In this document: piece after piece, positions 54,274 through 54,555 of the stretch
How the letters are laid out: every line of letters starts with the position of its first letter
How positions within the stretch are numbered: the first letter of the stretch is position 1
IMG/VR virus record: IMGVR_UViG_3300036769_000253
Length of the DNA stretch: 64,000 nucleotides
Direction: 5' to 3' (one strand)
Source: a virus
Taxonomy: Duplodnaviria; Heunggongvirae; Uroviricota; Caudoviricetes
Notes under the pieces: model-generated
The model's input: only the letters and a program-made list of their open reading frames with translations
Databases searched by the model: none
What the model was told of the DNA's origin: nothing
Program-made: the position numbers and the translations under genes

Positions 54274-54555
54274 CAAATGTGGGCCAATGAAAAACTTTTC
54301 GCTTTATCAGGCGGGTATTAAATTTAGTAGAAATTTAATGCTAACGGGGAAAGGTTATATACTCAATCCCGTGGGAAACTTATATTATTTATAAGATAAT
54401 ATTTGAACCTGTATCGACTATCCCCTAGGCCTTCTGGGCGGGGGAGTACCGGTGCTATTGATACGCACTCAGTTTTTAGGAAACGAAGACTGTTAAAAGG
54501 GGAAATGGTTTCCTTTCTTATTAAGAAAGTAAAAGATAGTCAGTCCTAATAGATG
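54274..54555 (+). other. group I-like self-splicing intron (ORF-less) in gyrB
   Basis: Splits the invariant GyrB sequence [10 protein letters not shown]. Follows an exon-terminal U and ends in G. About 75% identical to the element at 62373..62647. Confidence 0.65.

Follow-up and report, generated by a model that had tools for sequence, protein, structure and literature searches.

Two genes in the window, as we call the whole 64,000-nucleotide stretch of viral DNA analysed here, are each interrupted by a short element, 282 nt long in gyrB and 275 nt long in a second conserved phage gene. Judged from sequence and predicted structure, both are very probably group I self-splicing introns of the IA type, resembling the td and nrdB introns of T4. 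Exact removal of either element restores an uninterrupted conserved protein. The two copies, the only ones within the window, are 77% identical over 282 nt (84% over aligned columns), compared with a mean of 59% and a maximum of 62% in 200 shuffles. Neither can hold a homing endonuclease: the longest ORFs inside them encode 40-52 aa, as against ~235 aa for the endonucleases of related introns.

Interrupted genes and their continuous counterparts

The window is an AT-rich, phage-like region that includes a tRNA array and a replication module consisting of gyrB, RNase H, gyrA (55648..58023, a neighbour of gyrB) and an NAD-dependent ligase. The tRNA array (13361-28613, + strand) contains between 21 (ARAGORN) and 24 (Rfam) genes, with no suppressor tRNA among them. 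Just upstream of tRNA-Cys is an unusually long tRNA-like match of 123 nt (28412-28534; Rfam) that is not called by ARAGORN, and at 15379-15498 (+), also within the array, there is a sub-threshold match to the Y RNA-like YrlA (RF02553; 39.5 bits against a cut-off of 69, E = 3.4e-5). In the product of the ORF at 50377-52095 (+, 572 aa), the domains are separated by several long linkers of poly-threonine (runs of 8-10 T); from its sequence, this product looks like a cell-wall hydrolase or binding protein.

The gyrB ORF (52741..54321) terminates in a TAA 15 codons past DADVDG, with GGT ending at 54273, and the GyrB continuation (PPLYKI...GLGEM) resumes at 54556, just 3′ of the ATG of the ORF at 54553. 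The insert between them (282 nt, or 3 x 94) is preceded by U54273, has G54555 as its last base, and splits the gene inside the Toprim DxDxD metal-binding motif. Without the insert, gyrB encodes a 640-aa product in which the HATPase_c, DNA_gyraseB, Toprim and GyrB_C domains (Pfam) occur in order, and which matches GyrB/ParE proteins in the PDB at E = 1e-136; its alignment with E. coli GyrB (PDB) is gapless over the junction (E = 4.7e-136).

Intron-less alleles are present at both sites. In three relatives (L129-L131) that share the gene order of the window (gyrB, small ORF, RNase H, gyrA), gyrB is continuous, and their alignment to the window ends at 54272 and restarts at 54556 (L131) or 54559 (L129 and L130). 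A gyrB boundary placed one base leftward also works at the protein level; 54274..54555 was chosen because it satisfies the rule of a preceding U and a final G and permits the P1 and P10 pairings described below.

The second element is likewise preceded by a U (U62372) and terminated by a G (G62647), and lies between ORFs at 61970..62374 and 62671..63126. When T62372 is joined to GG62648, a Trp codon is restored (...APLYW-WKEFDTYK..., with the hyphen at the junction), and the resulting 293-aa product matches phrog_6721 in a single alignment that spans the junction (E = 7.5e-50). The joined protein has at least 8000 homologues, and the 120 that were listed are nearly all uninterrupted, with lengths of ~275-305 aa. 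One contig (L128), which is collinear with the window and 97-99% identical to it, is missing exactly 62373..62647, and its sequence is no longer reproduced if the boundary is moved by one base in either direction; the contig could represent either DNA or an assembled transcript. The protein that it encodes (P0001) matches the predicted joined product over the junction with 100% identity.

These observations bear directly on the initial annotation of this DNA. Its placement of the gyrB stop 15 codons after DADVDG, with the continuation 282 nt downstream at the ATG at 54553, is exact, as is its description of inserts that follow an exon-terminal U and end in G. The second homologous element of 275 nt is present as described, with a measured identity of 77% where about 75% had been given; the sequence blocks quoted as common to both copies occur in both, and both do lack a homing-endonuclease ORF. 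The statement that the paired frames are compatible with splicing at equivalent positions also holds, the joined proteins being colinear with their homologues.

The label of “ThyX-like” or “ThyX fold” that had been attached to the second gene, by contrast, finds no support in Pfam, NCBIfam, PDB or hhalign comparisons. No Pfam match to Thy1 (PF02511) is obtained for the phrog_6721 protein even at E = 10, NCBIfam yields no match, and the PDB yields none by sequence or by profile. When two profiles were compared by hhalign with the verified ThyX of T. maritima, the local match, around ...ITAPLYW, extended over 32-33 columns and had a probability of 0.7-1.1%. The AlphaFold model of the protein (mean pLDDT 49.7) is too poor for fold comparison, and the large profile search covers the best 150 matches only. 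The most suitable name for this conserved phage gene, which has no function assigned, is phrog_6721.

Secondary structure and kinship with T4 introns

Both elements can be drawn with the helices of a group I intron (Table 1), and essentially all core pairs in both copies are canonical. A U•G wobble is found in P1 at the 5′ splice site of each. P10 comprises 6 bp in each copy, and its pairs differ on both sides between the two (alifold). In P3, intron 2 displays a compensatory A/U swap relative to intron 1. P6/P6a of intron 1 is closed by a short loop at the place where relatives accommodate an endonuclease ORF, and P5 and P6a covary. P1 and P3-P8 are located in the two copies, and P2 and P9 are absent from both. 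P9 normally aids use of the 3′ splice site. Because a sibling intron (L005) at the gyrB site keeps this hairpin, its loss from the gyrB copy is a private truncation, and splicing of that copy could consequently be inefficient.

Table 1. Positions of exons, predicted introns and predicted structural elements in the window.
Feature	Position	Strand	Sequence, pairing or content	Basis
gyrB exon 1	52741..54273	+	HATPase, GyrB and most of Toprim; ends ...ADADVDG	ORF list, Pfam, PDB alignment
Intron 1, predicted group I intron in gyrB	54274..54555	+	282 nt, no ORF, no P9 hairpin	R1 match at 54406-54543 (60.3 bits, E = 8e-11); canonical helices; intron-less relatives
gyrB exon 2	54556..54945	+	PPLYK...GLGEM, GyrB_C	
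Intron 1 P1	54270..54286	+	exon UGGU + intron C (54270-54274) with IGS GGCCA (54282-54286); U54273•G	
Intron 1 P10	54277-54282 / 54556-54561	+	guide AUGUGG with exon 2 UCACAU	direct reading, alifold
Intron 1 P3 5′ strand	54292..54299	+	AAACUUUU; partner AAAUGGUUU at 54503-54511	covariation in A3
Intron 1 two hairpins between P3 and P4 (P3.1-type)	54300-54313, 54316-54340	+		family fold count
Intron 1 P4-P5-P6 domain	54344..54410	+	P4 ACGGGG/UCCCGU; P5 54353-54363; P6/P6a 54373-54410	
Intron 1 predicted catalytic 3′ half	54416..54541	+		element order as in T4 td
Intron 1 P7	54416-20 / 54537-41	+	GACUA / UAGUC	
Intron 1 P7.1; P7.2 with branch; P3′; P8	54421-45; 54449-54502; 54503-11; 54513-29	+		
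Intron 1 J8/7	54530-36	+	UAAAAGA	
Intron 1 3′ tail	54542..54555	+	AGUCCUAAUAGAUG, terminal G	P9 hairpin of sibling L005 truncated here
phrog_6721 gene exon 1	61970..62372	+	conserved phage gene	profile match over junction, uninterrupted homologues
Intron 2, predicted group I intron in phrog_6721 gene	62373..62647	+	275 nt, no ORF, no P9	R1 match at 62502-62641 (64.5 bits, E = 9.5e-12); absent in L128; sibling L110
phrog_6721 gene exon 2	62648..63126	+		P0001 100% identical to joined product
Intron 2 P1	62367..62394	+	exon AUUGGU + AGA (62367-75) with UCUGCCAAU (62386-94); U62372•G	MFE fold
Intron 2 P10	62383-88 / 62648-53	+	guide UUUUCU with exon 2 GGAAAG	direct reading
Intron 2 P3 5′ strand	62398-405	+	AUACUUUU; partner AAAUGGUAU at 62598-606	covariation
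Intron 2 hairpins after P3 5′ strand	62406-21, 62425-35	+		
Intron 2 P4-P5-P6 domain	62440..62506	+		
Intron 2 predicted catalytic 3′ half	62512..62647	+	P7 62512-16/62635-39; P7.1 62517-41; P7.2 with branch 62545-96	
Intron 2 P3′; P8; J8/7	62598-606; 62608-27; 62628-34	+		
Intron 2 tail	ends at 62647	+	CAAUGAUG, terminal G	

The group I intron model of Rfam (RF00028), which had been proposed as the cmsearch check on these elements, proved to be a misleading test. The two copies score only 16.6 and 17.7 bits against a cut-off of 50 (E = 0.07 and 0.03 in searches of 451 nt), and neither is reported in a scan of the whole window. In the Rfam alignment of both copies, non-standard pairs are marked in the P3 stem, and the low scores probably arise from a model that expects P2, followed by P3 right before P4. 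The miss is a shortfall in the sensitivity of the model rather than a failure of the structure. Because RF00028 gave no match at its gathering threshold, covariation analysis and a family-specific model were adopted.

A search of IMG/VR with a P4-P5-P4′ pattern recovered more than 119 contigs and a second pattern six more, giving a family of at least 125 IMG/VR contigs together with Enterococcus phage EF1; most of the pattern-matched contigs have a matching 3′ half downstream. From these, 32 diverse “mini-introns” with large P6 inserts trimmed were aligned (alignment A3) and compared with a structure drawn by hand, which comprises 57 pairs in ten helices (P3, P4, P5, P6, P6a, P7, P7.1, P7.2, the P7.2 branch and P8). 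Paired cells make up 93.2% of the total, as opposed to 34-47% when partners are slid by 1-3 columns, and changes on both sides are seen in 39 of the 57 pairs. The covariation score, with the P3/P7 pseudoknot included, is 0.437 as against 0.134 for shuffled alignments, and was reached by none of 500 shuffles. P4 and P6 are fixed by the search pattern and are therefore uninformative for covariation, whereas the other helices are informative. In one column pair of P3 (22-378), for example, AU occurs 11 times, UA 10, CG 7 and GC 2, and in P7.1 and P7.2, which reside between P7 and P3′, every pair covaries, with 99-100% of cells paired. The two hairpins between the 5′ strand of P3 and P4 are present in 60 of 62 family members, as determined by an alignment-free fold count, which was used there because the MAFFT register drifts in this region.

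The covariance model (R1) was built from 17 compact 3′ halves of metagenomic relatives, with the window and T4 sequences left out. In addition to both window introns (Table 1), it matches two introns of Enterococcus phage EF1 (intron A, 58.1 bits, E = 2.3e-10; intron B, 44.5 bits, E = 2.1e-07), the T4-type td intron, which it aligns end to end (40.9 bits, E = 1.3e-6), and the T4-type nrdB intron (29.8 bits, E = 2.8e-5).

Similar comparisons can be drawn at the level of individual elements. The T4 td intron, an IA2 intron that resides in the thymidylate synthase gene and carries I-TevI, has P4 (ACGGGG/UCCCGU) and P7 (GACUA/UAGUC) sequences identical to those of the window introns, and the elements of its 3′ half occur in the same order (P7, P7.1, GUA, P7.2, GAAA, P3′, P8, J8/7, P7′). 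Like the siblings of the window introns, it accommodates its endonuclease ORF in P6, and like the window introns themselves, it interrupts a conserved phage gene of nucleotide or DNA metabolism. However, T4 td possesses P2, and its P3 5′ strand lies right before J3/4-P4, whereas in the window family this strand directly follows P1, P2 is missing, and two hairpins come after the P3 5′ strand. The td intron also has P9, P9.1 and P9.2, while the window copies are without P9, and the td locus examined in a T4-type phage contains an annotated homing-endonuclease ORF within the intron, unlike the ORF-less window copies of 275-282 nt. The T4 nrdB intron has a P3 (ACUCCUUU/GAAAUGGGGAG) that resembles that of window intron 2 (AUACUUUU/GAAAUGGUAU) and the same layout of the 3′ half, but it retains the canonical order P1-P2-P3-J3/4, and its P4 sequence differs from that of the window introns.

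The placement of P3 was considered as a possible new architecture, and this was rejected, because optional “P3.1” pairings are an established element of group I introns (PMC3873408); the layout in the window is thus a peripheral variant. Given the lack of P2, the two hairpins after P3 and the missing P9, the window introns are assigned as IA-type and td/nrdB-like rather than as strict IA2. Overall, the initial reading of both elements as group I introns agrees with their structure, their covariation, their kinship with T4 introns and the existence of intron-less alleles.

Sibling introns, insertion sites and mobility

Introns at the same two sites in other phages carry endonuclease ORFs. The intron in L005, at the exact gyrB site of the window, contains a GIY-YIG ORF in P6; its RNA parts are 84-86% identical to the window copy, compared with 76% for the exons, and relative to it the window copy is missing not only the ORF but also the P9 hairpin and some of the second hairpin. 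At the second site, the intron in L110 contains a 233-aa ORF of the HNH/nuclease type and differs from window intron 2 solely by a 767-nt segment in the P6 loop, the RNA being 97-98% identical and the exons 80-90%. In most family members, P6 contains an endonuclease ORF of the GIY-YIG or HNH type. Because their same-site siblings have such an ORF, the window copies are regarded as ORF-less derivatives, and the direction of change appears to have been loss of the endonuclease ORF rather than gain. This supports the earlier suggestion of a family that spread and then lost its mobility genes. Among the phages sampled at the second site, P6 inserts exist in ORF-less (17-28 nt), intermediate (176-351 nt) and full (773-812 nt) forms, and the coexistence of these forms with presence and absence alleles looks to us like a cycle of endonuclease gain and loss.

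The introns cluster by insertion site, and each window copy is nearest to the same-site introns of other phages. Two site-specific lineages with different types of endonuclease are thus indicated, GIY-YIG in gyrB and HNH/nuclease in the second gene. A recent duplication within this genome was considered and rejected on the same grounds, each copy being closest to introns at its own site elsewhere.

Other family members interrupt helicase-like, DNA polymerase III alpha, primase-like and topoisomerase genes at conserved motifs. In the gyrB of other phages, one is found 7 nt upstream of the window site (after DADV), and in another topoisomerase one is inserted after DA; with the window site, this makes three different insertion positions within 11 nt in the Toprim DxDxD motif of phage type II topoisomerases. 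In genome assemblies, the family signature is observed in 11 species representatives, and all those with an assigned lineage are gut Bacillota. Among isolate phages, megablast with the gyrB region and distant-mode BLAST with the 5′ half of the intron returned nothing; BLAST with the whole intron gave only a match of 100 nt in Enterococcus phages, through which a true family member was reached. Enterococcus phage EF1 (L126, MF001358.1) has at least two unannotated family introns (~1688-2665 and 440-538) in a fragmented DNA polymerase III alpha region, whose inner ORFs are annotated as hypothetical protein or HNH homing endonuclease.

Several further observations concern annotation of these genes and ORFs. 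A 374-aa “toprim domain-containing protein” from a Dialister succinatiphilus assembly (P0168, NCBI) is 83% identical to the 241-aa junction-spanning GyrB query, covers only the first 76% of it, and has no match to the GyrB C-terminal domain; it may be another gyrB truncated in public annotation by an unrecognised intron. Many of the GyrB homologues P0157-P0232 are fragments of 150-190 aa that cover only ~61-78% of the junction-spanning query, a hint of further split sites in phage gyrB besides the three in the Toprim motif. The endonuclease ORFs of L068, L074, L006 and L013 contain in-frame TAG codons at conserved positions (YIG-stop-SND, compared with YIGQSND in relatives), which points either to decoding of TAG as an amino acid in those phages or to decay of the ORFs; in L068, the longest ORF reaches only 61 aa.

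Conceivably, the ORF-less copies are still mobile in trans through a GIY-YIG or HNH endonuclease encoded by a sibling in a co-infecting phage, although we consider this rather unlikely. By such a route, the sibling enzyme would cut the intron-less allele, and either form of the intron could then be copied in. The near-identity of the intron RNA (97-98%) where the flanking exons are only 80-90% identical would fit this proposal, as would the coexistence of ORF-less, intermediate and full P6 forms at one site. If the proposal were true, the forms of 275-282 nt that lack P2 and P9 would be small natural phage group I ribozymes undetected by Rfam.

The window also contains a GIY-YIG-domain gene (60754..61704, +). 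Its 316-aa product combines a C-terminal GIY-YIG nuclease domain with an atypical membrane/coiled-coil region at the N terminus. The nuclease domain matches the NCBIfam “group I intron endonuclease” family (69.7 bits against a cut-off of 56) and is 39% identical to the nuclease domain of the enzymes encoded by introns of the family. Two phage systems have been mentioned in which ORF-less group I introns home with the help of a free-standing endonuclease, termed collaborative homing (PMC3984707). The window resembles those systems in that a conserved phage gene is interrupted by an intron lacking an ORF and a gene with a GIY-YIG domain lies close by. A specific partnership with this gene was nonetheless rejected, since the gene is full length in relatives whatever their intron state. 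In two contigs (L013, ~4170-5424, and L078), a homologue of this GIY-YIG-domain gene is itself split by a family intron, inside its ...MCYIGQAVNI... motif between G and Q.

Proposed splicing pathway and alternative explanations

In the proposed pathway, the intron portion of the transcript would fold into the P3-P8, P4-P6 and P7 core, and the internal guide sequence would pair with the last exon bases to form P1, in which a U•G wobble marks the splice site. The first attack, after that U, would come from an external guanosine bound in P7. The guide would then pair with the first six bases of exon 2 (P10) while the terminal G of the intron enters the G site, and the freed 3′-OH of exon 1 would attack after this G, ligating the exons. 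The ligated transcripts would give rise to one full-length GyrB and one full-length phrog_6721 protein, and the two introns would be endonuclease-less derivatives of two site-specific lineages of one family. Both catalysis by these introns and their efficiency of splicing in vivo are properties that we infer.

It could instead be that the inserts are decayed, non-catalytic remnants, with GyrB produced as two associating polypeptides (526 + 130 aa) or gyrB reduced to a pseudogene. The losses sustained by the gyrB copy relative to L005 (the ORF in P6, the hairpin P9 and some of the second hairpin) are compatible with decay, the ATG at 54553 is situated exactly at the 3′ end of the intron and in frame with exon 2, and many GyrB fragments in databases end or start near the Toprim motif. 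We nevertheless regard this explanation as improbable. The core helices of both copies are fully or nearly canonical, the frames remain open in both exons with their conserved motifs kept, and P9-less copies at the second site are conserved over many distinct phages. Furthermore, no Shine-Dalgarno motif precedes the ATG at 54553 or the GTG at 62671, the first in-frame start of phrog_6721 exon 2, whereas neighbouring genes have GGAGG or AAGGAG. Because the downstream exons lack a ribosome-binding site and the genes are continuous in relatives, separate translation of the exon products is unlikely, and a split within the Toprim DxDxD motif seems more simply accounted for by intron insertion than by a designed break between two subunits.

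Compared with splicing of group I introns, bridging of the gaps by ribosomal bypassing, or an origin as another type of element, is hardly credible. T4 topoisomerase gene 60, which likewise encodes a subunit of a type II topoisomerase, is known for a 50-nt translational bypass and offers a precedent of sorts, but the inserts considered here are far longer, at 275-282 nt, and fold as a covarying group I core. Inteins are ruled out because translation in the exon frame would meet stop codons within the inserts, no group II intron family appears in any Rfam scan of the window or of the regions, and the match of R1 to proven group I introns weighs against all of these possibilities. It is just as implausible that the two elements resemble each other because both serve in some role other than that of an intron, for instance as a repeated regulatory RNA or a terminator module between genes: although both lie between ORFs and have long conserved blocks in common, those ORFs are halves of single conserved proteins, the elements are precisely missing in relatives, and family members in other phages interrupt genes for a helicase, DNA polymerase III alpha, a primase and a topoisomerase.

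Small introns similarly fragment essential genes in the crAss-like and “Jug” jumbo phages of the gut. In Jug phages, 2513 introns averaging ~206 nt have been described, and metatranscriptome reads bore out 37 of the 76 predictions that were tested (PMC12880540). The hosts differ: crAss-like and Jug phages infect Bacteroides and Phocaeicola, whereas the family described here occurs, in assemblies, only in gut Bacillota, in addition to an Enterococcus phage. Phage group I introns, ORF-less ones among them, and their abundance in gut phages are already established; the window introns are ordinary members of a widespread T4-related family, and the finding leaves the current understanding of group I introns unchanged. 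Its value is practical. The standard Rfam model misses a family that is present in a cultured Enterococcus phage as well as in at least 125 viral contigs, and if the introns went unrecognised, gyrB of this phage and a widespread conserved gene would be annotated as truncated or split ORFs. For annotation of these genes, and as a clear example of endonuclease loss, the window introns are therefore of use.
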